A stretch of DNA of 64,000 nucleotides. Source: a virus (Duplodnaviria > Caudoviricetes). The stretch is from positions 1 through 64,000 of the IMG/VR virus record IMGVR_UViG_3300026255_000001, one strand, 5' to 3'. Position 1 is the first letter of the stretch, and each line of letters begins with the position of its first letter. Both the position numbers and the translations under genes were made by a program. Shown one piece after another: positions 18,957 through 43,953 of this stretch. The notes under the pieces are model-generated. The model saw only the letters and a program-made list of their open reading frames with translations, was not told where the DNA came from and ran no database searches.

Positions 18957-18989
18957 GGTAGCCGAAGAAGAAAAAAAGGAACGACGACC

Positions 18990-21563: not shown

Positions 21564-21575
21564 GGAGATACGACC

Positions 21576-22622: not shown

Positions 22623-22631
22623 GAGACTACC

Positions 22632-25041: not shown

Positions 25042-28000
25042 ATGAACGAGTTCAGGTTTTTGGCGCCCGACGGGCGGTACGGCACGGTGAGCGCCGAGAA
25101 CTTCTCGAGCGTTTATTCCGCCGGCGGCATCCCCGTGGAGGCCATGCCCGAAGTCGACGTCATGTCCCCCGACGGCATGCTGTCCACGATCCGCCACGAG
25201 AAGGCGTCCGAACTCATCAAGACCCAGGGGTACAAGCTCGCCACGACCCCGCGCCCCCTGCGCTTCGCGTCCCCCGACGGCCGCACCGGCACGGTCAAGG
25301 TCGGCCTGGAATCCGCGGCTCTGAGGCAGGGCGGGACTTTGCTTTTGAAGGAGCTTGACGTCAACAAGCCGTTGAAGCCGGACCTCCCCCGCGACCCGAA
25401 GATCGCCTCCGAGCCCCCGGAGTCCGTGCTCGGCAACTGGTTCGGGCCGGTGCCGAAGGATCCGACGACCCTCAAGGGTTGGGATTCCTACCAGGCGCTG
25501 GTTACCAAGAACAAGAAGGGGAAGGCCGGATTCTGGGAGGGCATTACCCCGAACATGACGAACGTGCCATTCCTCGGCACCGCGCTCGCCGCGGTCGACG
25601 CCGGCAAGGCGGCCTTGACCGCGCAGCGGCTCAAGGAGGGCAAGCCGACTTCCGACCAGGATGTTCTGGACCTCAACATGTTCATTGCCAAGCAGGAGCG
25701 CGAATCCAACGCCACGATGCTCGGCAAGGCCGGCAACGTCGTGATCGACATGACGACTTTCATGGCCGAAATCGCGGGGTCGATCAAGGGATTTCTGGTG
25801 CCGTTGAAGCCCTGGTTGGCCGCCAAGGCTTCGGCCAAGGCCGGCGGCGCCGCCGTAGGCAAGCTGTCCGTCGGATTGTCCAGAAAGATTTTGAAGGAGA
25901 GCGGCGAAGAGTGGGCCAAGAACCTCGTGGCCAAGAAGGTTGCCGCCGAGGCCGGCGAAGAGGTCGCCGAATATCTGGCGAAGCACGGGGGCCGGCGCGT
26001 CGCTGCGAAACTGCTCGGGCAGCTCCCCGAGATCGGCGTCGCCACGATCGCCCCGACAATCGGCCAGATCGTCCCCCAGTTGGCAGCCACGAAGATGTCT
26101 GGGCAGGACGCCGGAACCTACCGTGGCAACGTCGACAAGACCTTCGCTGCGCTCATGGGCGAGGACATGGAGAATTCCGCGGCCATCTGGCGCTCAGTCG
26201 CCGACACCACGATCGAGAACTGGTCGGAGGCCATGGGTGAAACCATAATGGCAGGCATGTCCAAGCTCCCCATCGTCGGCGGCCTCGGGCAGGCCATCCG
26301 GCGCAACGCCAATGCGTTCGTGGAGAAGCTCGGCAAGGCCGGAACGGCGGAAGGCTTCCAGGCCGTGGACCGCATAGCGGGCATGGCGGCGTTGTCCAGG
26401 TGGTTGTATGGGCGCGCCAAGAAGGGCGGCTCGTTTCGGATGATGATGGACGACCTGCACGCCGTGGGTTACGATGGGGTCTTCGGCGAAATGATGGAGG
26501 AGCGCGCGGGCGACTGGATGCGTGGCCTGTTCGGGCTCGAAGGCGATGCCGACGAGAACGCCATCAAGCGCGCCTTCAAGAACTCCTTGCCCGACCCCGA
26601 GCAGCTCGGCGTCGAACTGATCGCCTTCTCCATCCCCGCGTTGGCGGTCGGCGGGTTGCGGTTCGCGGCGGTCTCGCCGAACATGGACGGGTATTTCCGT
26701 CGTCGTGAGGCGCTCGAGGGCCTGGCGACCCTGCACAAGAACCGCAAGCCGTGGGAAGACGGCAGCTTTACTTCCGGCGACGCCGAGGCCAGCAAACCCA
26801 TCGTCAAGGACATCATTCGCGAGCATGAAGCCTATCAGCGCGACTCCACTGGCTGGATGAAGTATTTCAACTCTATGTTTGACGGGCTTCTGAGCATGAA
26901 GGTCGTCGACGGCGCCGTGGTTGTCAACCCGGACGTCAAGTACAAGAACACGATGTCCATGATGATCGGTACCTACGGCGGCCTGGCGCGTACCGCGTAC
27001 CTGGATAACCTCGGGCGCAAGCCGACCGAGGAAGACCTGGACAAGGCCCTGGACATTGGCGCCGAGCACGCTATGCGCCAGATGGCCCGCCAGGGCGGTT
27101 TCATTTGGCTGTACGACAGCACGCTCAGGACGACCGATGGCGTGCCTTCCGCCGAGGCAGGCGTCACGACGGAGCAGGAGGCGCTCAAGTATCTGTCCAA
27201 GGCGCAGCTGCAGGCGCTGCGCGACGCCGACTTGCTGACCATCGACGACTTCGGCAAGATTTTCATGCTGGATCCACGCAGCTACGACACGGACCAGCAC
27301 GAGCTCTTGGCCCATGCGTTCGAGCTCGGCACGGCGCGTCAGGTTCTGGAGGACAAGAAGTCGAGCGAGAAAGATCGCGAGGAGGCCAGGAAGCAAGAGG
27401 CGGAGGCCCTGGAGAAGATCGGCAAGATCGCGCCGGGCGTCGGGCCGCTGAGCGTCGCGGGGGCCCACAGGCGCGCCGCCGAAGCCGTCGCCCGCCTGAT
27501 GACGCTGACCCCCGAGGAGGCCCGGGACGTCACGCTGCAACAAAACATCCGCTTCGAAAGCGCCCTGGACCTTGATGAGCCGGCGGACGAGGCCGCTCTG
27601 GCCGAAGCCGAGGCCAAGGGAGAATATGCCCTGCTGTTTGAACTGTACCGCAAGCACCAGCGTTTCAATGCCTATGTGAATCTGGAGCTGGACGCCGATC
27701 CGCTCCCCGGGTCCCTGAACGAGTTGCTGCTGCGCGCCACGGTGTCCCCGGATTCCATGTCTCCCGAGGAGAAGGTCCGCGCAGCTTCGTTCCTAACCGG
27801 CTACCCCGACGCCACTCGCCTCGACGAGGCGACGTCCGTCGCGCGCCGGGTCCACAAGATGGTACAGGAGGGCGAAATCGCTTTCCGGGGAGACAGGATC
27901 GTGCGCTCCGGCGACGGGCAGAAGTTCGTCGTGCTCTCGCCCTTCCGGGACGAGAAGACCAGGAAGTCGATGTACCGAGTGGCCCCGCTGTCGGAGACCG

Positions 28001-31000
28001 GCACGCCGCTGGAGTCGGAGGCCACGTTCATTTCCGCCGAGGAGCTCAAGGCCAAGTACCAAAACGAGACGAAGACCGGCGTGTCAATCTCCAAGTTCTC
28101 CCGGGTCCAGGGCTCGCTGGAATCCATGGTGCCGTTTCTCCACAAGGCGGGTTACCTCGGCTCCTGGGTGCGGAGCAACCGGCGAGACGGCGAGTCGGTC
28201 GAGCAGACGCTCGCCCGCATGACGAGCCGGGACCTGACCGGCCTTGGGCTGGTGAAAGCGATGAAGGGCGCCTCCGGGAAAGAGTTTTTCTACTACGACG
28301 TCGGCGCCCGTTCGCTGTTTTATGGGGCCCTGGGCAAGCGCACCCGCGGCGTGGCCTACAATCCCATGCAGATGGCGGACATGGCCGGGGCGCATTTCTC
28401 GGAGGACTTCACCGAGGTGCCGATGCTGCAGCTGGCGGCGGATGCGCTCGGGCAGAACCAGACGGCGGACCGGCTGCGCGCGGCGCTGCCCGTCCTGGCC
28501 GCCGCGATTTCCAGGGCCCAGAAGGAAGCCGAGCACGTCCTTGTGCAGGCGGCCAAGAACTCCAAGACGTCCTCTGAGCGCGCCAAGGCGGTCGAGGACC
28601 TGGCCACCCTGCGCAAGCTGCCGAGCGTGGACTCGTCCGACGTGCTCAACGTCGTCGAGGCTATGAGCAAAACCGTGAGGCACTATGTCCACGGGTACAA
28701 GGATTTCCCCCGCCTGCGGCAGCTGGTTCTCGGGGACGCCGTGGAGGCGCTGTACGACAATTCCAGCCTATCGCATGACCTCCCCGCCATCCGCGCAGAG
28801 CTTGAGACGGTGGCGTCGAAGGAATACTGGGACGCACTGCGCTACGACGGGGCGATTGAGTCGGCCGACGAGGGTCCGGCGGACGGGGAAGCCGGAAAGA
28901 CCGGCGACAAACCCCCGCCCCTGCCCCCTCCGGCCGACGGCGGCGCGGAAGAGGGTGCGCCCCCGGCCGAAGACGGGCCGGCCGGCCCTTCCGTTCCCGC
29001 TGACTCGTTGCTCGACGACCTGACCGCGCAGGAAGTAAACGACGCCTTGTTCGGAGAGTCCGCCGCCGTGCCACGGCCCGACCCGGCCCCCGGGGACGCT
29101 CCGGAATCCATCAAACTCTCCGGTGATGCGGACGACGACGCCCGCGCGCTCGACCCTGATCTCGTCAAGAACCCCGACGCCCTGGCGGACCGCCTCGTGC
29201 GCTTCCGTCCCGGCATGGTGCGGCGCATCGGCGCGCTGAAGGCGATCGGCAAGGACCTGATGGACAGCGGCTTGCTGTCCCTGCAGGCGGCGAACGACAT
29301 GCTGCTGGGCTACATGGCCTCCTCGCTGCGGCTGTCCAAACCCGAAGCGTTCGACGTGCTGCTCGCGCTGCGCTGGAATCCCGGCGCCAAGGCGCTCGCC
29401 GAAACCGCTCCCACGGAAGCCGAGATGGAGGCCGAGCTGACGGGCTCCCTCGCGGAAGCCCTCGGGCTGTCCAGTGACGCCGAAGTGCCGATGTCGTCGG
29501 ACAAGCTAGCGGGGTCGGGCAACGCGGACATGATGGACTCCAAGCTGAAGGAGGTGACGGACGTCGTGCGCGTCGTCCTCGACGCCGCCATGGGCTACGC
29601 CCCCGTCGCCGAGATCGGCCGGGCGATCCGCAAGTCGGCGCCTGGCGGCAGGCCGCTTGGGACCCGCAACCTGCCCGCCTGGCTCATGTCCAAGGAGGCG
29701 TTCGGCGAATGGGCCGCCGAGCGCAAGGCCAACATGCGCCGGTACTCGGACAACTTCGCCGAGCTGCGTCTCTCCCGGCCGCTGGACGCTGCCGAGATCA
29801 TGTTCAACAGCGTGGTCGCCAGCCTGCCGTGGGAGCACGCGCTGCAGATCTACAAGGCCGCCCAGAACACCTTCCCCCGCGAAGTCCGCGAGGTCAGGCC
29901 CAATGACGGCTACGGCACATACTTCGAGGCGTTGCTGCCTCCGGACGAGGCGGGCGTCCAGCACGACGCGGTCCGGGGAGCGACTGTCGCGGAGGTCGAG
30001 CAGAACGTCGCGGCGCTGATCAAGCTGGGGATGTACCGGGGCCAGGTCTCCGCCGAGGAGCTGGCCGAGCTGGTTCACGAAACCGGCAACGGGTCAACGA
30101 TGGCGACCCTGAACGACGCGGCTCCCCGCATGGCGGCGGAGCAGGCCAGCCAGCTGCGCCGGCGGCTGAGGCCCGAAGAGTATTTCAGCGACGCCAATGC
30201 GGAGCTCCGCGCCGCCGTTGAGCGCGTGGCCTCCATGATCGACTCCAAGCGCGGGACTTTCGGCCGAGCCGGGGCTTTCTACAAGGACCAAGGCGGAAAC
30301 ACGGTAAGCCGGTTCGGGTACCTGTTGAACGAAGGCGCCGACGCCAGCAGTAAATGGCATAGTCCGTGGAAGAAGCAGTTGCTGGAGGACGTGCTCGAGG
30401 TTGTCTCCCGTCTGCTGACTGGCTCCAATAGTCCGGCGCTCGTCGCGCAACTGAAGAAGGACCTGGTCCTGAACGAAGGCAAAGCGGTCCGGAAGTCCCT
30501 GCAGAACCTCTGGGAACAGCTGATCGAGCCGCTGGCGGCCCTGGAGCGCGAGCGCACGTCGTCCTCTGGCGCGGAGGCCCAACGGCAGACCCTGGCGGCG
30601 AGGGGGCTCAACGCGCTGGTGGAGGGCACGGCCGAAAACCCCGGAGTCTTCTACAAGGCGTTCGGACTGGCCTACGGCGGCAACGAGCTGGAGGCGTTCG
30701 CCTACATGCGCGACCGCAAGGACTTCTTCCAGACCAATGACAAGTACCTGTCCAAGCTGCTCGGCCAGTTCGCCGTCCGCAACGTCGTGACGCCCGTTGG
30801 GCGCGCCACGGGGGGCAAGGCGTTCTCGGGGTACCGGGCGAGGAGCCCGCAAGCCGAGGCCGCCGAGCGCCTGGCGGACCGCCGCGGCGACCTGCGCCCG
30901 GCCGTGCTGGTATCCGAGGCGGCGGGGATGGATTCCATCGAAGGCTCCGAGATGTCTTCGGCCCAGATGTACGATGCGCTCCGTGGAGTCGCGCGGGGAG

Positions 31001-34000
31001 CGTTCGCGCGGTTGCGCAAGGGCGAGCCCGGCGAAGTGTTCCTGCCGATGACGCTGTCCGGCGACAAGCTGGAGCTCAATGGCGTCGTGTGGACGATCAG
31101 CGGCGAGACCCGGATTCTCGGGGGCAAGCGGTTCGAGGACTACGGGGAGAAGGATTTCGACGCGTTCTACAACGACATCTACTTCGGGGACAAAGACAAT
31201 ATCGGTGCCCACGAGCAGTTCACGATCGACTTGATCCATGAGATTGCCCCCGGCATCCTGGATCCCGGCGGGCAGTTCAGCCTGTATCGCAAGGCGAAGG
31301 ACGGGAAGCTGGAGAGCAAGAGCCCGGCGGAGATCGGCAAGATCATCCAGGACGTACTGAAGAGGTTCTCGCAGATCGGGACCCCGATCGTCGACGGCAT
31401 CTTCGGGCCTCCGGGCTACCTGCAGACCGCCGAGGACGGCGCGGTCGAATACGTCGTCGCGCTCAAGGCGGACGGCAACCCGTACAAGGGCCCCGGCGAC
31501 GGGTTGCTCTGGGTCATGCCCTGGCTCCGCGACGCCGCGAAGAAGACCTACGGCGGCGCCGAGAAGCAGGCATCCTACAAGCTGGGCAACTGGGGGCCCA
31601 CGGACCGCGGCGTCCTGAGCCAGACGAAGGGCGCCGTCGCCATTGACCCCAACCGGTTCGAGCGCCTCGACCAGTCCGAGCCGGGCGCCCTGACGCCGGC
31701 CGAGCTCGAGGACGTGCTGTCCGACGAGTCTTTCCGCAGGCAGCTGCCGGAAGCCGTGTTTCTCGCCACCGGCAACGCCCAGAAGATGGGCCCCGGCAGG
31801 TTCGATCGTGTCGTGGAAGTCGTCCGCGGCAGCAAGACCTACAAGTTTGGCGTCTTCCGCGCCGCCCCGCTGGGCATCACTTCCACCATGCCCACGGACA
31901 CCACGCTCCAGGAGCGCTGGGTCGGCATGCAGCCGGTCGCCGGCGGGGCCGGAATCCTGAACGTCCCCGGGGGCACCCTGGATGCCCGCGCCGACTTCTA
32001 CCGCGTGTTCATGGACGAACTGTATTCCGGGGCGGAGTCCCGCATCCGCAAAGCGCTGGAACGCCCCGACGCGGTCCTGTTCGAGGGGGACAACCGGCGG
32101 CCGATGCTGAACGCCCTGGCCAAGGAGGGCGGGTGGCTTGGCGGCTCGCTGGCCGCCATGCAGACCCTGTTTGCCAAGCTGCGCGGGGCGGTCAACGCCG
32201 CCAAGAAGAAAGGCCACGCCAAGCTGGTGTCGCCGATCCAGAGCACCGGAGCCGCCCGCGAGGACGGAACCCTGGCGCCCGCCACGGATGGTCCGCTGGA
32301 ATACGACGACTCCGCCCGGCTGCATCCGTCCGGGGGCCAGATCGTGCGTGGCATGGCCAAGCCCTCCTCGTTGTCCGACCACCATCGGCTGGCGAACGGC
32401 GGATTGACGATGCCCGGCATGGGGCTCGGGCTGGAGGACATAGGCGAGGCCGACCTGAAGCGCGCGGCGAAGCATTACGAGAAGCTGTTCGGGCGCCGGA
32501 ACATCCCGGCGAACGAAAAGGAGCTCGGAGCCGCTGCCCACGAGCTCATGACCGAGCTCGTCGGAATGGCTCCCGGGACCTCCGATTTCAACAAGACCCG
32601 CGCGATCCTCCGGGCCCTGCTGGCGCCGGTGCGATCGCGGTCGGAGTTCATCCCGCTGGATGGCAGCACGGTGTTCGGGCGCTCGCTGGAGGATGCCAAG
32701 AAGGTTGTCGCCCACCTGCAGGCGAAACACCACCTGTTGTACGATCTCGCCAGGATCAAATTGGAAGGCGGCAAGGGCCAGTTCGACGTCGAATACGAGC
32801 AGGGTCGCCTGTCTGGATACACCGGAGAAGGCGTGAACCTCGACGACTTCGTCGTCCACTCCTCCGAGGACGGGCAAACCGTAATTGGGTTCCGCATCCC
32901 CGGCATCCCGCTGCTGGTCCACCGTTCTCCGGCGCTCGGCCATCTGCAGTCCATGCGCGTGATCCGGCTGACGGAGCTCACGAAGGACGCGGCGGCGATC
33001 TTCTACCACCAGGACACCCTGACGAAGGAAGGCGCGGACGAAGATGGCGACCAGTCCCATGTGTTCCCCCTGCCACCGATGTCCCTGCTCGCCCTGCACA
33101 AGAGCTTCGAGTTCCTGCGCGACAACGAATTCGAAGTCGGGGCCAGCGCCAGGCCGGATAGGTTCAGCGACGCCTATCCGAAGGATCTCCGGGATTCCTG
33201 GCTCGCCTCGCTCGTGCCCGAGAATCTCGAGCGGATCACGGACCCCCGCGTCATGGCCCTCTCTCGGGACGCCAACCTGGCCGGATCCACGGCCATCGGC
33301 ACCGCGGCGTCCATGCTGACGGCGGCGGAACTGATGTTCGCAGACATGGTGCTGGACAAGGATGTCCCAGGGCTGCGCGACACCTCTGCCGCAGACCCGT
33401 ACGTCGCCGTCCGGTTCGCCGTCCTCCACGACATGGTCAACCGCATCGTGGACGCGGGCAAGGTCCCACACATGATGAAGGGGATGATGCTCTACCAGCA
33501 GTTTGTCCCGGTATTCGTGGCAGCCGCCGTCGGCAGTGAAGTCCCGTTCGTCGAAGGGCTGGAAGGACAGGAGCTCTACGATCACGTCCACAAGCACACC
33601 GTGCAGGAAGTGACGGAGTGGCTCACGGACTCCGAGCGGGGACGGCGCCTTGCGGACAACGTCCTGGTTGGCGGGATGACTCTCGGCAAGGCGTTCCGGG
33701 CCACGTACGGCAAGAAGGCGAAAGAAATGCAGCCCAAGATCGCCGCCCTGCTGGCGCTGAGCGACGACATGACGACGCTCTCGACGGTTGTTCGCGCGAT
33801 CCACAAGTTCAAGCCGACGAGTTTCGGCGACATGGTTTCCCTGCTCGAGAAGATCGACTCCGTCCTGGACGGCCGGCTCAAGACCCTTCCCGCACCTACC
33901 AATCTCCCGGCCAACCGGCCGCTCCGCGTCGTGCTGGATTCCATCATCTCCCCGTTCCGCCCCGTCCTGGAGGAGCTGATCGGGAAGGTGAAGCAGGACG

Positions 34001-37000
34001 TTCTGGCCCATCCAACGGGGGCGCTGGAGGCCGCGCGGGCCGAGCAGCTGCTGGCAAACCCGCGCACGAAGGCCCTGGTCCGGAAGCAGCCCAGCGTGGA
34101 CGGAGAATCGTTTGACTACGAGTGGACGGCGGCGGGGCTGTCAAAGCTCTGGGATCTGCAGCTCGACCTGCACCAGCGGCTGGCGACGGCCACGCTCAGG
34201 GCCAGGGAACTGGCCATGCACGCCGAATTCGCCGACATGCCGGTAGAGGAACTCGCGGAAGAGGGGTTGCGCGGAACCGTGGACCCCGGGGCCGCGCCGC
34301 AGTATCATGTCTTCGACAGCGTCGTGCGGCAGCGCGCCGAGTTGCGGGCTACGCCGGAGTACGCGGACAACGTCGTGCTGTCCGCTCTGGAGCTGTCGGT
34401 TACGATGCCGGAAGCCGTGGGCGAGGCGCAGGAACGGGCCGCCAAGCAAGCCCGTGCGCCAAGAATCCGTGTCGGAGTGACGGACAGCTTCAGCGTCGCC
34501 GAGGCCCGCCGCGACTGGGCCAAACTGCCCCCCGCGCTGCAGATCGACATCTTCGACCTGATCGCGCGATTCAACGGGCTGCACCGCTCGGAGAGCCGCC
34601 TGTACGATCTCGTTCCCCCGGCGTTTATGAAAGAGGTCTTCGCTCTCGAGCGCCAGATCGCCGCCGGCTTCCGGGACGGTTCGATCAACATCGACGCCGT
34701 GCGCCCGCTCAAGAGCGGAATAACGCTGCGGGGCATGCTCGACTTCGCCCGCGAGTCCTATCTGACAGGGGCCGCCGGGGCCACGATCGAGGTGCCGGCA
34801 GGCAAGCGCGTTCCTTATGACGGCGCGGGCAGCTACCTGCGCTTCGCGCCGTTCGTCTCGGGCTGGGAAGCCGCGCCGTATTACGGTGCGCCGGCTATCC
34901 CCGAGCTGCTCGGCGAAAACGCCGGCGAGGTCGGCCTTCCGGCTCCGGCGCCCATCCGCCCCGCTCCGGCGCCGGCGCCTGCCGCGCCTAAGTCGGTCAA
35001 GGACGTTGCCGTCAAGGCCCAGTCTCCAAGCAAGTACCGCACGAAGGAGCTGGCCAAGGCGGCTGCCTCAAACAAGGTGGCGGCACTGACCGATGCCGCG
35101 ATCACGGATGAGTCCTACGCCAAGCGCCTTGGCCTCGCTGCGCAGGCCGCGGGCATCCTGGTGTCCGACGCGTCCCAGGTCAAAGAAGGCGACGTCGTCT
35201 ACGTCTCCATGCCGGGCCGCGGGCGAGGAGCCAGCGTCGCGCAGATCAACGGCTTCATCGACTCCGTTGTCGGGATGGTGAACGCCGGTGCAGCCGTCGT
35301 CACGGACAACGGAGAGAACGCCAAGCGCATGCACAACATCGGCGCGGAAGGCGTCCTGCGCGAGCGTCTCCTGAAGGAGGGGTTTCAGGAGACCGAGAAC
35401 AAGAAGTTTGGCTACAGCCTTTGGCGCAAGGGCGCCGTTACTCTGGAGACGCCATCCCTCCTCGGCGAGGCGAAGCCGCGGCAGCTGGAGTTGCAGCTGG
35501 GGCAGTCGATCGCCCCCGACAGCGACGCCGGCGCGCCCTACGACCTGAACGAGCGCGAAGCCGCCGACCTGCGCAAGGCGTACGGACTCGTCCAGGGAGA
35601 GATCGTCCGGGCGGAGGCCATCATGGAAGCCGCGATCGCGCGGGCCCACGAAGCCAAGATGGAGGGCTCCGCCGAGGCGCTCAAGGCCCTGCGTGAAATG
35701 ACGGCTTCCGGGCTCGGCCTCGTCGTGTCCTCCGTCGTGCCGTACGCCGCGGACGAGAACCTCGGAACCAAGAAGTCGATCTGGGGCGGGTACGACCCGG
35801 ACAACAACCTGGTCACCCTGTCCCCGAAGCTGGTGCGCCACCTGGAAAACCCGGCCGGCGGCCTGAACTGGTTCGACAAGACCCTGTTCCACGAGCTCGC
35901 CCACGCCGGCATGTACCATCTCGTCGGGAAGAACGACCTGCGCTTCCGGCTCCTGCTGGACCAGGCGCGCAACGAGGCGGCGCGGCGCGGGATCGACAAG
36001 AAAGAATGGGACAACGACTACTACGGGCTGACGAACACGCAGGAGTTCGCGGCAGAGGCGCTGTCCAATCCCGCCTTCCGCTCGTTCCTGGCGTCCATTC
36101 CGGCCGTCGGCATCCTGACCGCGCCGGAGAAGTCCGCCAGCCTCTGGGACGCCGTGCGCCGCCAGATCGCCCGCGTCCTGGCGTCCTTCGCGAAGCGGTT
36201 CCCCGGCATCAAGCACTCCCTGCTGGAGCAGGCGTTCGACGAGATCATGCAGTGGGACGCGGAGGACGCCTTGTCGGCCCGCGCGGACGCGTATGCCAGG
36301 CGCGCAGCCGAAAGCCTGCCGCCGGAGGAAAGCCCGACGGAGTTCGAGAGCTGGGAAGCGGCGGCCGCGGACGCCGCCGCCCGGTTCAAGCTGGAGTGGA
36401 ACGGGTCCTTCGAGGCGTCCAAGAACTGGAACGTGGTCGGATCGGAGAAGGACCCGCTGGCCTACAATGCGGTCAACGCGGACAACTCGCTGCTGGTGGA
36501 GGTCTCCGGAACGAGAGGCGGGGCGAAGTGGACCGCGTACGCCGGACCCGGATACTCCGTCGCGCAGTCGGAGAAGCCGGAGGGGCGCAAATGGCCCGAA
36601 AGCGTAGATCTGTCTTATGCCCGCAAAGCGAGGCAGGGCGAGCTGGACTTCGGGCAGTCGATCGCGACACCGGAGTTGAATCCGGTAGTTCGCGGGCTCG
36701 AGTCGGCGTTCAACAAGCTCGGCTTCTCGTTCAAGGACGCGCGGGATTCGGACGTGTACGGCGCGCTTCAAGTTGCGAGCCGCGTAATAGCGGACCCGAA
36801 GAACGAGGTCGCCCATATCTCGCAGGCCGCGACGGCGCTGTCGTACCTGGCGTTCCCCAGAATCGTCGGGGTCGAGAGGGACGTCAGATCGCGCGCGGAT
36901 CTGGAAAACATCCTCCGCTCCGAGCTGTTCGACAGGTATGAAGAGGCTGGAGGAACCGTCCCGGCGTCCACGTTCGCCCGCGTATGGTCGGAGATGAAAC

Positions 37001-40000
37001 GGATCGTAAGGGACTTGGCGCACTGGTTCCAGGCGAAGCAGGCGGACATCGAATCCATGCTCGACTCGGTTCTGTCCGGCGATCTGGAGACCGCGTTCGG
37101 GAAAGACGTTCTTGTCCCTCCCGCAGGAATGGAACAGGTAAACCTGCAAGAACAGCTGGACAGGTCTCCGGAGGCGAAATCTATCTTGGCCTCGCTGCTG
37201 GATTCCGAAATCGCGTTCGAGCTGTCCGGAAGCGTAGCCTACGCCCCGCAGATTCCGGTGTTCCGAAACAAGGGCACAACGGCCCACGACCTGGACCTTA
37301 TTTTCCATCCAGACAATTCCTACGGGGCCTTCGCCTACCTGTTGCAGGAGTTCCCGAACGCGGAGATGATCTACGCGTTTCCGTCGGGTCGCGGGGGCTA
37401 TGCGGCCGGATTGGCCATTCCTCCGGCGGGCAGAAAAATATCTGGCGTAATCGACAGGACGGGCCGCCGGAAAGACGGGCCGGACTCCGCGAGAGTGGAG
37501 CGCGGATTCGACGTCTTGGACGAAACCGGGTCCGTTGTAGGGAGTTTCAGGTTGACTTCGCTGTTTTCCGGAAAGACGACGGAGACCTGGGAGGGCGAGA
37601 AGGCGGTTATCGTCGACATCATTCCTGATTTCAGGGTGCGAAAGGAAGGGGCCGCAGAGCGTACAACTCCGCTCCGGGTCGGCGACTCCGTTCTCGACCT
37701 TCCGATCAGCGCCCACGAAGCCGGCATGGAAAAGAAGCTGGAACTTCTGCGCATCAAGGATTTGAAGGATCTGGGCCGCAGCGCGTGGGCGCTCGGAAAG
37801 CAGCAGGCTGTCGGCCAATCCGCGGACGCCCCGGTGGAAGTTCTAGCGCTGAATGCTGTGGGGCAGTCCATCGCGGCAGAAGCCGAAGCCGCCCTCGACC
37901 CCCTGGCCCGCTCGATGAAGCGCGCCGAGGAGCTGAAGAAGCTGCACGCCAAGCGCGTGTCAAAGCCGATGCCAGATAGCTGGGTTTCATATGAGGCATC
38001 CGCCGTTTTCACCCGACAACCGGACGGGTCATGGCTGATGGAAAATGAGGACGAGGGGCTTAAACAGGTCGTGTCTGCAGCAGCCGTTCAAATGGCTTGG
38101 GGCGAACAGGAGGAGTTTGACATTTCCGGGTCTTTAGATTTTGTTGCCGTCGCCCAGTCTGTGGAGCGCTGGAAGCAGGAGCAGGGCATCGTCTATGACC
38201 CGAAGGAAGCGCACGCCGTCGGCGAAGCCTTCTACCACGACGTCGGGGCGTTCAACCACGAGGCCCCGGGCCTCCTCGGAAAGATCGCCTCCGTCCTCCT
38301 CGCCCAGCAGCGCAAGCTCCGCCGGGGCGAGCGCGACTGGTGGAAGGACACCGAGAACCAGCTGGTGGTGAGCGGGTACACGGCCAAGACCGACCCGTCC
38401 TTCGGAAGGCATAACGGAATTCCGACTTCGTTCTTCACGACGGAGGGACCCGAAGGACCTCTCTCCGGAGAGGTACGCTACAACAAAGATTTGGCCCGCT
38501 GGGAGAAGCGCGCCGGCGGAGCCTGGGCCGCCATATCGGAAGCGGAAGCCAAGAGCGACTATGAAACCGGCACCGCCGGCATCGACATGGCTCCGACGTC
38601 CGGGGCGTCCGTCCGTCCCGGCCGCGGCATGCGCTTCGTCATCAACCCGTCCCCCCGCGACATCGTCTGGGCGGCCGTAGGCGACGTGTACTCAGGGACC
38701 GTCAGAAAATGGGTCGCATACCCTGCCAGAAAGATAGCCGTCGACCCCAAGGCCCCAAGCGCCGACAAGCTCGGGCTGCTGGCCGACTCGGTCGCCACGG
38801 CCATCCAGGGCCGCCGGCCGCAGAACTACAACGAGATCGGGGTCAGGCTGAGACTTGGGAACTTCTATATCGAGTCCGAGACCGAAGCCCTCCCCGCCGA
38901 GCTCCGCCGCCTCAACGAGCTGCTGAAGAAGGCATACACGATCGTCCACGGGTCCCTGGATCCGATGGCGGAGAAGCGGCGGGACATGAGCGGGCAGTCT
39001 ATCTCCGCAGAAGAAGCCTTCCCCGCAGCACCCGAAGGCATGCGCTCGACCCGCATGGCCCCCGACGGCAAGCCCGACCCGGACTACGATCTCGCCGATC
39101 CGGCGTCGAAGGTGAACCGTTCGGCCGTCCAGATTCCGGCCGTTGAACAAACCGAGGCCCCGGCAGAAGACAGGAAGATTGCGTCTGTCATTGACAAGGT
39201 CGGCCGCCGCGCAGACGGGCCAAACGCCCCTCGCGTCACCCGCGGATTCGACGTGGTCGACGAGACCGGCAGCGTCGTCGGAAGTTTCCGCCTGGAGTCA
39301 CTGTTCTCCGGCAAGACGACGGAGACCTGGGAAGGCGAGAAGGCCGTCATCGTCGACATCATCCCGGACTTCCGGGTGCGCATAGACGGCGCGCCAGCGC
39401 TCACGGCCCCGTTAAAAATAGGGGACCAGACGCTTGCCCTCCCGATCTCCTCCCACGAAGCCGGGATGGAAAAGAAACTCGAGCTCCTTCGCATCAAGGA
39501 TCTGAAGGACCTCGGTCGCAGCGCGTGGGCCATGGGACAACGGAGGATCGAAGGCGAGTCCGCCGCTGTCTCCCTCGACAACCCGCCAGAAGTCCAGACC
39601 GAAGCCTGGCGCATGGCGGTCGCGTACCCCAAGACAGGCAAGACCAAGGAGTCCTTTGCGCTGCGCATGGGCGTCGACGGCAATCCTGATCCGGCCTGGG
39701 ATCTTGGAGACCCCGAGTCCGAGGTCAACCGGACCCGGCGCACCATTCTCCCCGAAGAACTGTCCGAGGCCCCGCTGCCCTCCGACGTCGAAGCCGCGCT
39801 GGACGACGCCCTCGGACTCATGAACGTACTGCTTTACCGCCGCCCGTTGCCGGACGGCAGTGGCGCCCCGGCGGCCGTGTTTGAAGACGGAGTTGTGTTC
39901 GCCGAGAAGCCCGAAGCCATTGGTCCGGCTGTCGCCGCGCTCACCACGAAGATCGTCGGCGAAAACCTGCCGGCGCTCAATGCCGTTCTTGACCCCGCCA

Positions 40001-43000: not shown

Positions 43001-43953
43001 TGTGGGTCATGACGATCATTCCGTCTGCGTTGCAGGCGGCGGCTTATCTGGCTGGGCTAGCCGGCGGTGGCGACGACGACGACGTTCCGCTGCCGATCAT
43101 GAACGAGCCCGGGCGTAAGCAGTACATCGACGTGACTCCGCTCATGAGGCTCTTGCCGTGGTACAAGGGAGACCCGACCGGCAAGCGCCGGATGTACCTG
43201 CAATTTGGCAAGCAGGTCCATGAAACCGGGCTGTCCAACCCGCTCGGTACGCGCGGCTGGATCAACGAGCCGTGGGACCAGCTGATGCGCAAGCTCCCGA
43301 TGCCCGTGCGCGCACTGTACGAGCAGTTGACGGGAATCTCCCCGGGGTCCGATTGGCAGCTCGAGTTCAGCGGCAAGGGGATTCTCGGAATCTTCAACTC
43401 CGGGGAACCGGGACTCAAGGGATTCATGACGAGCCGCCTCGGCTACATCGCCCAGAAGCTGATGCCGATGTCCACCTCCCAGTTCCTGCAGAACCCGGAA
43501 GTGTTCCCCTTGAACCATTTCGCCCCGACATCTAAGGGGACCTCGCGGTCGAAGATCGTGAAGAACATCGCCTCCGTCCTTGCCACCTATGCGTCCGCGA
43601 AGGACTGGCACAGGATCCGTCAGGTCCCGCGCGCCCGCGCCGCCTTGGACAGCCTGGTGCCGGAGTTCCTGCGCGCCGCAGAGGCCAACGGGTACAACCC
43701 GGACAAGGTGCTGTCCACCGCCAAGGGCATGGTCCTGGGCGACCTGTACGCCCGCATGTGGAAGGCGCTCGACACGATGGACGAGCCCCTGATGCGCGAG
43801 ACAGCCGCCTCAATCTGGCGCGTCGGTGGGGCGCTCAAGGGACTCCGGTCCTCCATGGCGAACAAGCAGCGGTCATTCGGGATCGAGCTGACGCCGGAGC
43901 AGATGCAGGCGGCCGAGGACGCCATGAACTGGGCGATGTACGGATATAACTAA
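25042..43953 (+). CDS. giant (6303 aa) polyvalent virion protein containing a two-barrel RNA polymerase, zincin peptidase and nucleotidyltransferase-like domains
   Basis: Uninterrupted ORF; PLLVHRSPAL...GADEDGDQSHV (aa ~2664) mirrors the beta-prime NRAPTLH...NADFDGDQMAV; also GDG...TKG...NAQK, VDAGKVP, HELAH...EFAAE and GS...DLD motifs. Confidence 0.85.
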   Translation: MNEFRFLAPDGRYGTVSAENFSSVYSAGGIPVEAMPEVDVMSPDGMLSTIRHEKASELIKTQGYKLATTPRPLRFASPDGRTGTVKVGLESAALRQGGTLLLKELDVNKPLKPDLPRDPKIASEPPESVLGNWFGPVPKDPTTLKGWDSYQALVTKNKKGKAGFWEGITPNMTNVPFLGTALAAVDAGKAALTAQRLKEGKPTSDQDVLDLNMFIAKQERESNATMLGKAGNVVIDMTTFMAEIAGSIKGFLVPLKPWLAAKASAKAGGAAVGKLSVGLSRKILKESGEEWAKNLVAKKVAAEAGEEVAEYLAKHGGRRVAAKLLGQLPEIGVATIAPTIGQIVPQLAATKMSGQDAGTYRGNVDKTFAALMGEDMENSAAIWRSVADTTIENWSEAMGETIMAGMSKLPIVGGLGQAIRRNANAFVEKLGKAGTAEGFQAVDRIAGMAALSRWLYGRAKKGGSFRMMMDDLHAVGYDGVFGEMMEERAGDWMRGLFGLEGDADENAIKRAFKNSLPDPEQLGVELIAFSIPALAVGGLRFAAVSPNMDGYFRRREALEGLATLHKNRKPWEDGSFTSGDAEASKPIVKDIIREHEAYQRDSTGWMKYFNSMFDGLLSMKVVDGAVVVNPDVKYKNTMSMMIGTYGGLARTAYLDNLGRKPTEEDLDKALDIGAEHAMRQMARQGGFIWLYDSTLRTTDGVPSAEAGVTTEQEALKYLSKAQLQALRDADLLTIDDFGKIFMLDPRSYDTDQHELLAHAFELGTARQVLEDKKSSEKDREEARKQEAEALEKIGKIAPGVGPLSVAGAHRRAAEAVARLMTLTPEEARDVTLQQNIRFESALDLDEPADEAALAEAEAKGEYALLFELYRKHQRFNAYVNLELDADPLPGSLNELLLRATVSPDSMSPEEKVRAASFLTGYPDATRLDEATSVARRVHKMVQEGEIAFRGDRIVRSGDGQKFVVLSPFRDEKTRKSMYRVAPLSETGTPLESEATFISAEELKAKYQNETKTGVSISKFSRVQGSLESMVPFLHKAGYLGSWVRSNRRDGESVEQTLARMTSRDLTGLGLVKAMKGASGKEFFYYDVGARSLFYGALGKRTRGVAYNPMQMADMAGAHFSEDFTEVPMLQLAADALGQNQTADRLRAALPVLAAAISRAQKEAEHVLVQAAKNSKTSSERAKAVEDLATLRKLPSVDSSDVLNVVEAMSKTVRHYVHGYKDFPRLRQLVLGDAVEALYDNSSLSHDLPAIRAELETVASKEYWDALRYDGAIESADEGPADGEAGKTGDKPPPLPPPADGGAEEGAPPAEDGPAGPSVPADSLLDDLTAQEVNDALFGESAAVPRPDPAPGDAPESIKLSGDADDDARALDPDLVKNPDALADRLVRFRPGMVRRIGALKAIGKDLMDSGLLSLQAANDMLLGYMASSLRLSKPEAFDVLLALRWNPGAKALAETAPTEAEMEAELTGSLAEALGLSSDAEVPMSSDKLAGSGNADMMDSKLKEVTDVVRVVLDAAMGYAPVAEIGRAIRKSAPGGRPLGTRNLPAWLMSKEAFGEWAAERKANMRRYSDNFAELRLSRPLDAAEIMFNSVVASLPWEHALQIYKAAQNTFPREVREVRPNDGYGTYFEALLPPDEAGVQHDAVRGATVAEVEQNVAALIKLGMYRGQVSAEELAELVHETGNGSTMATLNDAAPRMAAEQASQLRRRLRPEEYFSDANAELRAAVERVASMIDSKRGTFGRAGAFYKDQGGNTVSRFGYLLNEGADASSKWHSPWKKQLLEDVLEVVSRLLTGSNSPALVAQLKKDLVLNEGKAVRKSLQNLWEQLIEPLAALERERTSSSGAEAQRQTLAARGLNALVEGTAENPGVFYKAFGLAYGGNELEAFAYMRDRKDFFQTNDKYLSKLLGQFAVRNVVTPVGRATGGKAFSGYRARSPQAEAAERLADRRGDLRPAVLVSEAAGMDSIEGSEMSSAQMYDALRGVARGAFARLRKGEPGEVFLPMTLSGDKLELNGVVWTISGETRILGGKRFEDYGEKDFDAFYNDIYFGDKDNIGAHEQFTIDLIHEIAPGILDPGGQFSLYRKAKDGKLESKSPAEIGKIIQDVLKRFSQIGTPIVDGIFGPPGYLQTAEDGAVEYVVALKADGNPYKGPGDGLLWVMPWLRDAAKKTYGGAEKQASYKLGNWGPTDRGVLSQTKGAVAIDPNRFERLDQSEPGALTPAELEDVLSDESFRRQLPEAVFLATGNAQKMGPGRFDRVVEVVRGSKTYKFGVFRAAPLGITSTMPTDTTLQERWVGMQPVAGGAGILNVPGGTLDARADFYRVFMDELYSGAESRIRKALERPDAVLFEGDNRRPMLNALAKEGGWLGGSLAAMQTLFAKLRGAVNAAKKKGHAKLVSPIQSTGAAREDGTLAPATDGPLEYDDSARLHPSGGQIVRGMAKPSSLSDHHRLANGGLTMPGMGLGLEDIGEADLKRAAKHYEKLFGRRNIPANEKELGAAAHELMTELVGMAPGTSDFNKTRAILRALLAPVRSRSEFIPLDGSTVFGRSLEDAKKVVAHLQAKHHLLYDLARIKLEGGKGQFDVEYEQGRLSGYTGEGVNLDDFVVHSSEDGQTVIGFRIPGIPLLVHRSPALGHLQSMRVIRLTELTKDAAAIFYHQDTLTKEGADEDGDQSHVFPLPPMSLLALHKSFEFLRDNEFEVGASARPDRFSDAYPKDLRDSWLASLVPENLERITDPRVMALSRDANLAGSTAIGTAASMLTAAELMFADMVLDKDVPGLRDTSAADPYVAVRFAVLHDMVNRIVDAGKVPHMMKGMMLYQQFVPVFVAAAVGSEVPFVEGLEGQELYDHVHKHTVQEVTEWLTDSERGRRLADNVLVGGMTLGKAFRATYGKKAKEMQPKIAALLALSDDMTTLSTVVRAIHKFKPTSFGDMVSLLEKIDSVLDGRLKTLPAPTNLPANRPLRVVLDSIISPFRPVLEELIGKVKQDVLAHPTGALEAARAEQLLANPRTKALVRKQPSVDGESFDYEWTAAGLSKLWDLQLDLHQRLATATLRARELAMHAEFADMPVEELAEEGLRGTVDPGAAPQYHVFDSVVRQRAELRATPEYADNVVLSALELSVTMPEAVGEAQERAAKQARAPRIRVGVTDSFSVAEARRDWAKLPPALQIDIFDLIARFNGLHRSESRLYDLVPPAFMKEVFALERQIAAGFRDGSINIDAVRPLKSGITLRGMLDFARESYLTGAAGATIEVPAGKRVPYDGAGSYLRFAPFVSGWEAAPYYGAPAIPELLGENAGEVGLPAPAPIRPAPAPAPAAPKSVKDVAVKAQSPSKYRTKELAKAAASNKVAALTDAAITDESYAKRLGLAAQAAGILVSDASQVKEGDVVYVSMPGRGRGASVAQINGFIDSVVGMVNAGAAVVTDNGENAKRMHNIGAEGVLRERLLKEGFQETENKKFGYSLWRKGAVTLETPSLLGEAKPRQLELQLGQSIAPDSDAGAPYDLNEREAADLRKAYGLVQGEIVRAEAIMEAAIARAHEAKMEGSAEALKALREMTASGLGLVVSSVVPYAADENLGTKKSIWGGYDPDNNLVTLSPKLVRHLENPAGGLNWFDKTLFHELAHAGMYHLVGKNDLRFRLLLDQARNEAARRGIDKKEWDNDYYGLTNTQEFAAEALSNPAFRSFLASIPAVGILTAPEKSASLWDAVRRQIARVLASFAKRFPGIKHSLLEQAFDEIMQWDAEDALSARADAYARRAAESLPPEESPTEFESWEAAAADAAARFKLEWNGSFEASKNWNVVGSEKDPLAYNAVNADNSLLVEVSGTRGGAKWTAYAGPGYSVAQSEKPEGRKWPESVDLSYARKARQGELDFGQSIATPELNPVVRGLESAFNKLGFSFKDARDSDVYGALQVASRVIADPKNEVAHISQAATALSYLAFPRIVGVERDVRSRADLENILRSELFDRYEEAGGTVPASTFARVWSEMKRIVRDLAHWFQAKQADIESMLDSVLSGDLETAFGKDVLVPPAGMEQVNLQEQLDRSPEAKSILASLLDSEIAFELSGSVAYAPQIPVFRNKGTTAHDLDLIFHPDNSYGAFAYLLQEFPNAEMIYAFPSGRGGYAAGLAIPPAGRKISGVIDRTGRRKDGPDSARVERGFDVLDETGSVVGSFRLTSLFSGKTTETWEGEKAVIVDIIPDFRVRKEGAAERTTPLRVGDSVLDLPISAHEAGMEKKLELLRIKDLKDLGRSAWALGKQQAVGQSADAPVEVLALNAVGQSIAAEAEAALDPLARSMKRAEELKKLHAKRVSKPMPDSWVSYEASAVFTRQPDGSWLMENEDEGLKQVVSAAAVQMAWGEQEEFDISGSLDFVAVAQSVERWKQEQGIVYDPKEAHAVGEAFYHDVGAFNHEAPGLLGKIASVLLAQQRKLRRGERDWWKDTENQLVVSGYTAKTDPSFGRHNGIPTSFFTTEGPEGPLSGEVRYNKDLARWEKRAGGAWAAISEAEAKSDYETGTAGIDMAPTSGASVRPGRGMRFVINPSPRDIVWAAVGDVYSGTVRKWVAYPARKIAVDPKAPSADKLGLLADSVATAIQGRRPQNYNEIGVRLRLGNFYIESETEALPAELRRLNELLKKAYTIVHGSLDPMAEKRRDMSGQSISAEEAFPAAPEGMRSTRMAPDGKPDPDYDLADPASKVNRSAVQIPAVEQTEAPAEDRKIASVIDKVGRRADGPNAPRVTRGFDVVDETGSVVGSFRLESLFSGKTTETWEGEKAVIVDIIPDFRVRIDGAPALTAPLKIGDQTLALPISSHEAGMEKKLELLRIKDLKDLGRSAWAMGQRRIEGESAAVSLDNPPEVQTEAWRMAVAYPKTGKTKESFALRMGVDGNPDPAWDLGDPESEVNRTRRTILPEELSEAPLPSDVEAALDDALGLMNVLLYRRPLPDGSGAPAAVFEDGVVFAEKPEAIGPAVAALTTKIVGENLPALNAVLDPAIAQALHQTARKYAGRRASASVEAEIVLRLAGSSSSLFTSPHVWPAALAADMADMLIHHPTELLKRSRVEMVDGVPQLVSAGSDRELVSRGRELSPNDSASWERMIESDRVPEKLRAKLGGLTDAHEAIEAVVEAVDAGRIKDPDYDKVESALVRSAAENLRVRPVSGEPGEMARRELASGMSMSSIYYHDPGTRIAALQGMGIPGQHLAFYEMMNQHTASWNNGAHWLNTKAKVLPYETATLYRLFTDKEGYRREDAKVHTHLTLSQRQAEKRFEAAVTAIMEHAHKFDLSNPAMREALLDLPGTVVYGKNQAAYRRGSDERAGTLPERETIREALSHFNAELRGLLLDPEKGGRTEAEIDPFLLAEEAKAQYEKDFKALNDAAFESLDGREYLRFREGYAGMHLYSYGRGAGMDPAGDQALADIFDHVKHADTSLSFMKRPDGREDPSLKLSHKDGIPAWTELQQKILGEQSPERLRRALKRGRAPNVVEANRLIVDAIQENLYAVAAEYHAKHGAQAGAWKPSEAEKKQIATVKQLRDVLARFKFVETAPAEFSRELETFAEAYEKKGLVPKSMSFLTLRGEYIDRVHTAASHKSILNSYLLITNPDGAPTIMAKPAADASLERGAITRDTWIKYGDNLARHFKDKFNRHAADVPVIDPVTKKVLFTTPGIIAEIRRLYDAHADKDGQFTSPRMSSVEAWSATDKDAGRLVKMLVQVSPTEVYPWASAIQRMLAWTKTMSFGWSFFFQTALGESSIGMSGPFKGNLALTFLTRPFLKSSRENWAKFWGNVRAFREHRRYYNPAVADRLDFMLRMGLTTGRTAALEPYADVFRKDVHKIGAGFREKHGDHVARLWETFWFGADKTDQSWARFWPGVTGRKMSDWMFDWFSAVKEAQMDLAVKKLALDHGLNPDGRASWSQARFLAKYFDDGMGGQNWYRYLWATPKWMFGLTLGLLAPNWTLSSWNTSGLAPITQALFKNYPAPGQQRFIWTHYMPSMLLWVMTIIPSALQAAAYLAGLAGGGDDDDVPLPIMNEPGRKQYIDVTPLMRLLPWYKGDPTGKRRMYLQFGKQVHETGLSNPLGTRGWINEPWDQLMRKLPMPVRALYEQLTGISPGSDWQLEFSGKGILGIFNSGEPGLKGFMTSRLGYIAQKLMPMSTSQFLQNPEVFPLNHFAPTSKGTSRSKIVKNIASVLATYASAKDWHRIRQVPRARAALDSLVPEFLRAAEANGYNPDKVLSTAKGMVLGDLYARMWKALDTMDEPLMRETAASIWRVGGALKGLRSSMANKQRSFGIELTPEQMQAAEDAMNWAMYGYN
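37432..37800 (+). repeat. copy 1 of a ~123-aa internal duplication in the giant gene
   Basis: RGFDV.DETGSVVGSFRL.SLFSGKTTETWEGEKAVIVDIIPDFRVR...HEAGMEKKLELLRIKDLKDLGRSAWA recurs 1740 nt downstream. Confidence 0.9.
39172..39540 (+). repeat. copy 2 of the ~123-aa internal duplication
   Basis: Near-identical protein, many synonymous differences from copy 1. Confidence 0.9.

Follow-up and report, generated by a model that had tools for sequence, protein, structure and literature searches.

What is the role of a phage protein of 6,303 amino acids (aa), and does it bring an RNA polymerase (RNAP) of its own into the host cell? This question is raised by the open reading frame (ORF) 25042..43953 (+) of the DNA stretch analyzed here, which comprises the first 64,000 nucleotides (64 kb) of the virus record IMGVR_UViG_3300026255_000001 (Caudoviricetes), and which we call the window at its whole length. 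The full record, with a length of 81,852 bp and a direct terminal repeat of 127 bp, is classed as complete. The frame stays open over 6,303 codons with a third-position GC content (GC3) of 0.85, it occupies 23% of the genome, and its protein product has a cysteine count of 0. A first-pass annotation had read this product as a giant virion protein carrying a divergent two-barrel RNAP. We suggest that the best explanation as a whole, and a probable one, is that of an ejected cassette member using a two-barrel RNAP of the clade of Thermus phage P23-45 for early transcription.

The phage itself is real and recurrent in wastewater-type systems, given that near-identical phage DNA was found in bioreactor, activated-sludge, wastewater, and anaerobic-digester metagenomes of >10 studies dated 2016–2025, the read sets including a metatranscriptome run that may contain DNA. 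Near-identical contigs from the independent assemblies of several studies span the giant ORF, as exemplified by a contig of 3,954 bp over 30037-33990 with mismatches at 5 positions only, and therefore, the ORF is not an assembly artefact.

The Predicted Two-Barrel Polymerase Core

The first-pass annotation had based its polymerase proposal on eight ordered motifs with the layout of single-chain double-psi beta-barrel (DPBB) polymerases, and all eight were found where it had placed them, within a frame confirmed to be open:

31357..31386 (+), LKRFSQIGTP at aa 2106, a candidate duplex-binding helix ending in T-P, by motif comparison only
31489 (+), GPGDG at aa 2150, with the GDG loop at aa 2152
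31624 (+), TKG at aa 2195, the start of the strand TKGAVAIDPN
31771 (+), GNAQKMG at aa 2244
32920 (+), HRSPAL at aa 2627, the R-x-P strand
33031 (+), GADEDGDQSHV at aa 2664, the loop of the Asp triad
aa 2745 (+), NLAGSTAIG
33448 (+), VDAGKVP at aa 2803

The family to which these motifs belong is tiny and very rare. A word-indexed search found two full-length relatives, named P0002 (5,263 aa, 74–88% identical) and P0003 (5,270 aa, ~30%), and a HMMER search of 1.84 billion representatives found two clusters only, namely, the fragment P0004 and the N-terminally cut P0005 (4,861 aa, 33%). No stand-alone or shorter relatives of the giant protein appeared in the word-indexed collections searched, scans of IMG/VR and JGI contigs for further relatives found nothing, and tblastn of the polymerase part and of the C-terminal part against 50,697 phage records gave no match. 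Likewise, Pfam, PHROGs, and NCBIfam searches on all parts of the protein returned only phrog_25317 and a sub-threshold SprT-like match. The four-way family alignment and profile used hereafter joins the window protein with P0002 (~80% identical) and with P0003 and P0005 (~30% each), all of them full-length or nearly so. In this alignment, HRSPALG, GADEDGD, GPGDG, and the Lys-Gly of TKG are invariant, and so are the G, K, and P of GNAQKMG and the D..K.P of VDAGKVP.

Profile and motif comparisons were made with four polymerases: gp64 and gp96 of phage P23-45, gp66 of phi14:2 (a crAss-like phage), and the E. coli beta' subunit. In P23-45, gp96 combines the virion RNAP and the tape measure protein in one chain (PDB 8H2M/8H2N), and gp64 is the non-virion RNAP (8F72) (PMC10770324). 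From these comparisons, the following candidate elements were delimited:

31339..33531 (+), proposed two-barrel RNAP core, aa ~2100-2830, by sequence and profile comparison
31387..31746 (+), candidate DPBB-B (beta-like barrel), with the GDG loop at aa 2152, the invariant Lys 2181, and the strand TKGAVAIDPN at aa 2195
32647..32751 (+), IPLDG...LLYDL element, aa 2536-2570, matched in the correct order to E. coli beta' 252-286, weak when taken alone (P 0.21)
32842..33111 (+), candidate DPBB-A (beta'-like catalytic barrel), with HRSPALG (aa 2627), 30 residues, and then GADEDGD (aa 2664-2670)
33253..33336 (+), candidate bridge helix SRDANLAGSTAIGTAASML, within a 151-column hhalign match to gp66
33406..33471 (+), segment holding VDAGKVP (VDxxK trigger-loop motif), by motif comparison and profile matches

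The candidate catalytic barrel gave the clearest similarity. When aa 1801-3000 were compared with PDB sequences by phmmer, the only matches were 8F72 (gp64, E 0.01), extending from the R-x-P strand through the DxDGD loop, and 8F5M (P74-26 gp62, E 0.15), both being crystallographically defined non-virion two-barrel RNAPs (PMC10770324). The only PHROG match, phrog_25317 (E 0.028), covers the same residues and profile positions as the gp64 match and is of the same family. With the four-member profile in hhalign, the best alignment to gp64 fell on its residues 280-338 (P 0.0046), that to gp96 on residues 734-789 (P 0.0023), and that to E. coli beta' on residues 416-468, which hold NADFDGD (P 0.15), with the Asp triad and R-x-P in register in all three alignments. 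When the columns of the profile were shuffled 55 times as a control, the scores went no higher than 27.4 (mean 18.5, sd 3.1), short of the 33.5 observed in every case. The positive control, gp64 against gp96, whose homology is established by crystal structures, gave P values of 0.0016 and 0.003, and thus the window protein is about as similar to each of the P23-45 enzymes as those two are to each other. The divergent single-chain two-barrel RNAP proposed in the first-pass annotation therefore holds at the sequence level, with the correction that the detectable similarity is to P23-45 gp64/gp96 and does not include the crAss-like catalytic barrel; the nearest relatives would accordingly be the P23-45 polymerases rather than the crAss-like enzymes, YonO, or QDE-1. 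As for the catalytic loop DEDGD, whose Glu had already been pointed out as unusual, this residue turned out to be invariant in the family, at a position that is occupied by Phe or Tyr in E. coli beta', gp64, and gp96.

The other candidate barrel precedes the catalytic one in the chain. In gp64, the next-best alignment falls on residues 110-156 and is given by the segment GDG...QTKGAV of the window protein (hhalign with the complete profile, P 0.064), and a sub-profile aligned with gp64 residues 110-186 (DPBB-B) over 77 columns with P 0.0062, so that the DPBB-B and DPBB-A matches of gp64 fall in the same order as in the window protein. In Suppl. Fig. 8 of Chaban et al. (PMC10770324), an alignment based on structures, the gp64 110-156 region comprises the GDG loop and strand beta4 of DPBB-B, and the Lys-Gly of this strand is common to gp96, gp64, QDE-1, bacterial beta, and PolD. 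When checked in the real sequences, the Lys-Gly strands read TKGAVAIDPN in the window protein, LKGTVIVDPR in gp96, and WKGVIVTHPN in gp64, in each case with a basic residue 14–16 positions before; Lys 2181 and TKGAVAIDPN align with VRM...WKGVIVTHPN of gp64 and with VRG...LKGTVIVDPR of gp96. Further upstream, LKRFSQIGTP resembles the duplex-binding helix LRRENIYRTP of gp96 and WRVSDFVRAP of gp64.

Downstream of the catalytic loop, window residues 2731-2881 align in hhalign with phi14:2 gp66 residues 1526-1689 over 151 columns (P 0.086), pairing LAGSTAIGTAASML with GGKSGVGITANML and NRIVDAGKVP with NAFVDNAKDP. In gp66, the bridge helix is 1526-1560 and the trigger loop is 1597-1624 by structure-based alignment (PMC10770324). 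The spacing of the motifs is also close to that of the known enzymes, with 46 residues from the helix to the GDG loop (35 in gp64, 40 in gp96), 44 from GDG to KG (38 and 40), and 38 from R-x-P to the first Asp (39 and 37). In sum, the order of barrel B, connector, barrel A, bridge helix, and trigger loop is matched, the individual elements being weak. In addition, the language-model neighbors bearing a family name were all phage clusters with PF05183, i.e., the RNA-dependent RNA polymerase (RdRP) family, a result to be taken as a lead only and not as a test.

On these grounds, the region aa ~2100-2830 is very likely a genuine two-barrel polymerase core, and, with somewhat lower confidence, also a catalytically active one. 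Its assignment to the clade containing the P23-45 polymerases is the best explanation of the matches described.

Evidence Against the Polymerase Reading

Several results weigh against this interpretation and should be kept in mind. First, the statistically solid similarity comprises only ~60–80 residues around the catalytic loop, and the remaining elements are individually weak (P 0.06–0.6). Second, AlphaFold2 models had a predicted local distance difference test score (pLDDT) of 38 for aa 1950-2950 (4-row alignment) and of 37.8 for aa 2530-2860 (5 rows), and VIA-align and Foldseek comparisons of the pLDDT-38 models gave generic helical matches only, being uninformative either way. Third, the Pfam models PF00623 (Rpb1 domain 2), PF00562 (Rpb2 domain 6), and PF05183 gave no match even at E 10, which places the protein outside those curated families and is still compatible with distant homology. 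With a two-sequence profile, the PDB yielded no polymerase, nor was gp64 recovered there from the 33%-identical relative by itself, and the profile of the whole protein gave matches at its low-complexity linkers only. Furthermore, the Glu of the D-x-D-G-D loop is unusual and could mean an altered chemistry, and it is gene order and composition alone that point to a virion location.

Neither exact 11-mers of the genome nor intergenic 8-mers revealed a conserved early-promoter motif, and the yield of this k-mer search consisted of a tandem repeat in a fiber gene and the 8-mer CCTTTTGG. As a separate observation, this 8-mer or its complement has 5 copies in the genome, all of them intergenic (window 1466, 48041, 56756, 60835; genome 67884).

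The Cysteine-Free Block and the Gene Neighborhood

The giant gene does not stand alone in lacking cysteine, as it closes a group formed with the following genes:

17028..24986 (+), four upstream genes (642, 857, 348, and 784 aa), cysteine-free, which together with the giant gene make up a putative ejection cassette

The five adjacent genes (17028-43953) contain 0 Cys in 8,934 consecutive residues, against a content of 1.05% (144/13,778) in the rest of the phage proteins, and the probability of such a block arising by chance is ~1e-41. All homologues of the giant protein are likewise Cys-free. Among well-known ejected proteins, gp15 and gp16 of T7 have 0 Cys, as do gp50 (the virion RNAP), gp51, and gp52 of N4, whereas the neighboring virion proteins of both phages contain Cys; the P23-45 gp96 also has 0 Cys in its 5,002 aa. 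In view of these Cys-free proteins of T7, N4, and P23-45, the five-gene block has the appearance of an ejection cassette closed by the giant gene, which adds support to the claim of the first-pass annotation that this gene is the last of an ejection-like set. A cysteine-free block is, moreover, a simple compositional marker that may help to recognize ejection proteins where the structural genes match no known family, and it fits T7, N4, and P23-45 as well.

Upstream on the late strand, the order is terminase, a gene of portal size, a gene of capsid size, a small protein with a tail-fiber domain, and then the cassette. The giant gene ends the late-strand block and is followed by a 115-aa ORF and by replication genes on the opposite strand, encoding a primase-helicase-like protein, a family A DNA polymerase, a Cas4-like nuclease, and a helicase. 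Within the genome, neither a sigma-70 region 2 nor a second ORF with DxDGD was found, and there was no match to a T7-type RNAP (PF00940), the control for this PF00940 search being equally silent. Two hydrophobic helices of the giant protein, at aa 526-544 and aa 5985-6003, are both conserved and could anchor it in a membrane.

Some other features of this genome deserve mention on their own. The large terminase subunit (window 2166-5000) is interrupted by a LAGLIDADG-type homing endonuclease/intein domain (Pfam PF14528, E 4.5e-10). Within the cassette, the 857-aa and 348-aa proteins begin with a near-identical 17-residue N-terminus, M-S/A-TFIGNIGVPRIDRHI (18990-19040; 21576-21626), followed by divergent low-complexity sequence, and this common N-terminus may be a packaging or sorting tag. 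Outside the window, at L002:16900-17600 (genome 78,900-79,600), six tandem 123-bp (41-aa) repeats lie in a 1,387-aa fiber-like gene, and the genes beside it have Gly-rich and CBM_5_12 domains.

Other Modules and the Variable Cargo Slot

Pairwise comparison with the relatives divides the remainder of the giant protein into the following modules:

25042..28851 (+), N-terminal module, aa 1-1270, kept in P0002 (74%) and P0003 (27%), with the helix at aa 526-544
28885..29016 (+), Pro/Ala/Glu/Gly-rich linker 1, aa 1282-1325, where P0002 carries ~225 extra residues
aa 1340-3290, central module, containing the proposed polymerase
34909..35001 (+), Pro/Ala linker 2, aa 3290-3320
35500..39555 (+), variable cassette region, aa 3487-4838 (~1,350 aa), lacking in P0002 and P0003
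39586..43950 (+), C-terminal module, aa 4849-6303, more conserved than any other part (33% identical to P0003), with the helix at aa 5985-6003

The N-terminal module, without a family or PDB match, is possibly a membrane or ejectosome anchor; apart from this, it starts with three tandem repeats of ~35 aa (aa 4-100; 25051-25340) having the PDG cores FLAPDGRYGTV, VMSPDGMLSTI, and FASPDGRTGTV. At the other end, the C-terminal module had neither a PDB match nor a match among the phage records. A small conserved module sits between linker 2 and the variable stretch.

The cargo held in the slot between the polymerase and the C-terminal module varies among the relatives. In the window protein, the variable region contains HELAH (aa 3617), GS...DLDL (aa 4083), and a duplicated module of ~123 aa, and the SprT-like match of its own modules is sub-threshold (E 0.12–0.29). 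The first-pass annotation had described here a chain of enzyme-like modules, a description that found no support in Pfam, NCBIfam, the PDB, or a homologue search among shorter proteins, the insert being present in this strain only. The readings of its modules as nucleotidyltransferase and metallopeptidase are accordingly unverified, and their designation as host-takeover effectors remains speculation, a label not yet justified. P0005 fills the same slot (L001:7718-10570) with an RNase H domain, recognized by Pfam at E 2.7e-10, and shows a weak match to NADAR there (E 0.003).

G(Q/E)S(I/A) peptides at aa 3487, 3871, 4258, 4274, 4651, and 4838 mark the borders of the variable region and its inner subdivisions, with GQS occurring 5 times against ~1 expected, and the same motif flanks the short equivalent segment of P0002 on both sides. 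These peptides could be recombination junctions or protease sites. A possible trace of cassette loss comes from one anaerobic-digester contig, in which 37430 is followed directly by 39171. The 1,740 nt skipped in this way, without a change of frame, lie between the two ~123-aa duplicate copies, which hints at strain variants arisen by recombination. In read run X8, coverage was low over ~37.0–38.9 kb with no bridging contig, a pattern that would fit a strain in which part of the insert is missing.

Proposed Mechanism and Alternative Explanations

If the ejected-polymerase explanation is right, the 6,303-aa protein would be the largest of five ejection (internal virion) proteins of a complete 81.9-kb wastewater phage. 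It would be packed loosely folded in the capsid and threaded through the tail and the cell envelope, ahead of the DNA or with it, in the manner of N4 gp50 and P23-45 gp96. The N- and/or C-terminal modules, each with its conserved hydrophobic helix, would then hold it at the membrane, and the polymerase would transcribe the first phage genes without the host enzyme. The core would be ordered as a duplex-binding helix, a beta-like barrel (GDG loop and Lys-Gly strand), a long connector/clamp, a beta'-like barrel (R-x-P strand and metal-binding D-E-D-G-D loop), and finally a bridge helix and trigger loop, and the slot between this polymerase and the C-terminal module would carry the relative-specific cargo. 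Within this picture, the ORF, the conserved motifs, the similarity in sequence to known polymerases, the cysteine-free block, and the variation of the cargo are observations, and the fold, the catalytic activity, the packaging in virions, the ejection, and any part in early transcription are inferred.

An injected RNA polymerase lets a phage start its program without relying on the host enzyme, and two-barrel injected RNAPs have been experimentally documented in few phage groups only, namely, the crAss-like phages and P23-45. If the proposal is true, P23-45-type enzymes would also occur in mesophilic, GC-rich phages recurring in wastewater and activated sludge, and here the enzyme would sit mid-chain in one of the largest phage proteins on record, next to a slot for exchangeable cargo and with an unusual acidic residue in its metal loop.

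A bolder version, which we regard as doubtful, turns the protein into an "infection starter" polyprotein, where an ejected P23-45-clade polymerase is permanently coupled to a cassette slot whose effector modules are swapped by recombination at the G(Q/E)S(I/A) junctions. These junctions might then also be proteolytic processing sites, at which cleavage, perhaps carried out by the HExxH module, would set the modules free inside the host. Such a polyprotein, if true, would be a new phage route to shuffle counter-defense cargo and deliver it together with a transcription enzyme.

Among the rival explanations, the one that survives best, unlikely as we hold it to be, is that a long-tailed phage encodes here a tape measure protein with a polymerase attached, as in P23-45 gp96; it would determine the length of the tail and exit through the tail tube, and would be no member of a podovirus-type ejection cassette. 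Its appeal comes from the closest detectable polymerase relatives being precisely gp96 and gp64, given that P23-45 carries its virion RNAP on a tape measure protein of 5,002 aa, that gp96 is likewise Cys-free and of similar size, and that both proteins have hydrophobic segments and an HExxH motif. This last resemblance loses force because the HExxH module of the window protein lies within the strain-specific insert, and the position of the polymerase, in the middle of the protein and not at its N-terminus, does not follow the gp96 plan either. Moreover, no tape-measure, tail-tube, or chaperone family was detected in or near the gene, the neighbors being highly divergent; nothing tail-like follows downstream, where the 115-aa ORF gives way to the opposite-strand replication genes; and the four upstream proteins, Cys-free and of low complexity, resemble an ejection cassette.

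It is quite improbable that the barrel around DEDGD has degenerated or been repurposed, with the protein being a structural/ejection scaffold or using the site for some other chemistry (such as priming, RNA-templated synthesis, or nucleotide signaling) and having no part in early transcription. Such a change of function would agree with the Glu that replaces the aromatic residue of beta', gp64, and gp96, with the lack of a match to the Pfam RNAP models and of a repeated promoter motif, and with the fact that two-barrel enzymes include RNA-dependent (QDE-1) and DNA (PolD) polymerases. Nevertheless, the 3 Asp, R-x-P, the two basic residues in the second barrel, and the trigger-loop motif VDxxK are invariant over ~70% sequence divergence, which argues for a working active site, and no other RNA polymerase or sigma factor was detected in the genome.

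A chance resemblance, with a central region unrelated to RNA polymerases, is very improbable, for the marginal E-values (0.01 and 0.028), the lack of a fold model, and the empty results of the profile search and of the relative's own PDB search are outweighed by the 0/55 shuffled profiles reaching the observed score, by three mutually distant polymerases each aligning best at its own catalytic loop, by the further matches, in the same order, to known structures at the second barrel, the bridge helix, and the trigger loop, and by the invariant motif residues.

Comparison with Known Systems

The P23-45 polymerases gp96/gp64 are the nearest counterparts, as in both systems a single-chain two-barrel polymerase, predicted in our case, lies in or beside a giant cysteine-free protein of the late module, and the likeness includes the best DPBB-A matches, the GDG loop, the K-G-x-V-x-x-x-P strand of DPBB-B, and the spacing of the motifs. 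In contrast, the candidate polymerase of the window protein lies at aa ~2100-2830 of 6,303, whereas that of P23-45 is N-terminal; the inter-barrel connector would be ~430 aa long, compared with 139 in gp64 and 193 in gp96; and the metal loop reads DEDGD instead of DFDGD or DYDGD. The window phage has, besides, a variable cargo slot and neither a detected tape-measure context nor a detected second non-virion paralogue, and identity between the proteins is negligible outside the motifs.

The crAss-like phi14:2 gp66 (6VR4) is a virion-packaged two-barrel RNAP in a giant structural protein of 2,180 aa, and the window protein, known from sequence alone, would be its likeness in this respect, with its candidate bridge helix and trigger loop aligned over the 151 columns already described. 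It differs in that no significant match to gp66 arises from either catalytic barrel, in that gp66 is not among the PDB matches, in that its two best hhalign matches (P 0.077 and 0.086) fall off its catalytic loop, and in that gp66 itself lacks a D-x-D-G-D string.

Coliphage N4 gp50 is described as a T7-like single-subunit enzyme, unlike the two-barrel type. Despite this, gp50 with gp51 and gp52 offers the closest functional picture as an analogue, that of a giant cysteine-free polymerase in an ejection cassette. This 3,500-aa protein is stored as loosely connected domains, exits the capsid after two channel-forming proteins, and stays tethered to the membrane (PMC13434306).

In T7, gp16 similarly comes last among the cysteine-free ejection proteins that follow the tail genes and is the largest of them, with the differences that no sequence similarity to it was found and that it has no polymerase. 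The polyvalent proteins of phages and conjugative elements, reportedly described by Iyer, Burroughs, Anand, de Souza, and Aravind in 2017 as huge multi-module polypeptides that are delivered together with DNA and vary in module content, may be compared with the window protein in that it, too, would string together several modules, with a slot whose content differs between relatives. They differ from it in that family-level support among the cargo modules exists only for the RNase H of P0005, those of the window protein itself being orphans.

In summary, giant late-module proteins hiding an injected two-barrel polymerase are an already known kind, represented by P23-45 gp96 and the crAss-like gp66. 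What is new here, as far as the sequence comparisons indicate, is an unrelated and very rare family with a putative polymerase placed mid-chain among 6,303 aa, a predicted metal loop whose acidic residue is invariant, and a long connector between the candidate barrels, together with the context of an ejection cassette rather than a tape measure protein and an adjacent slot of variable cargo.

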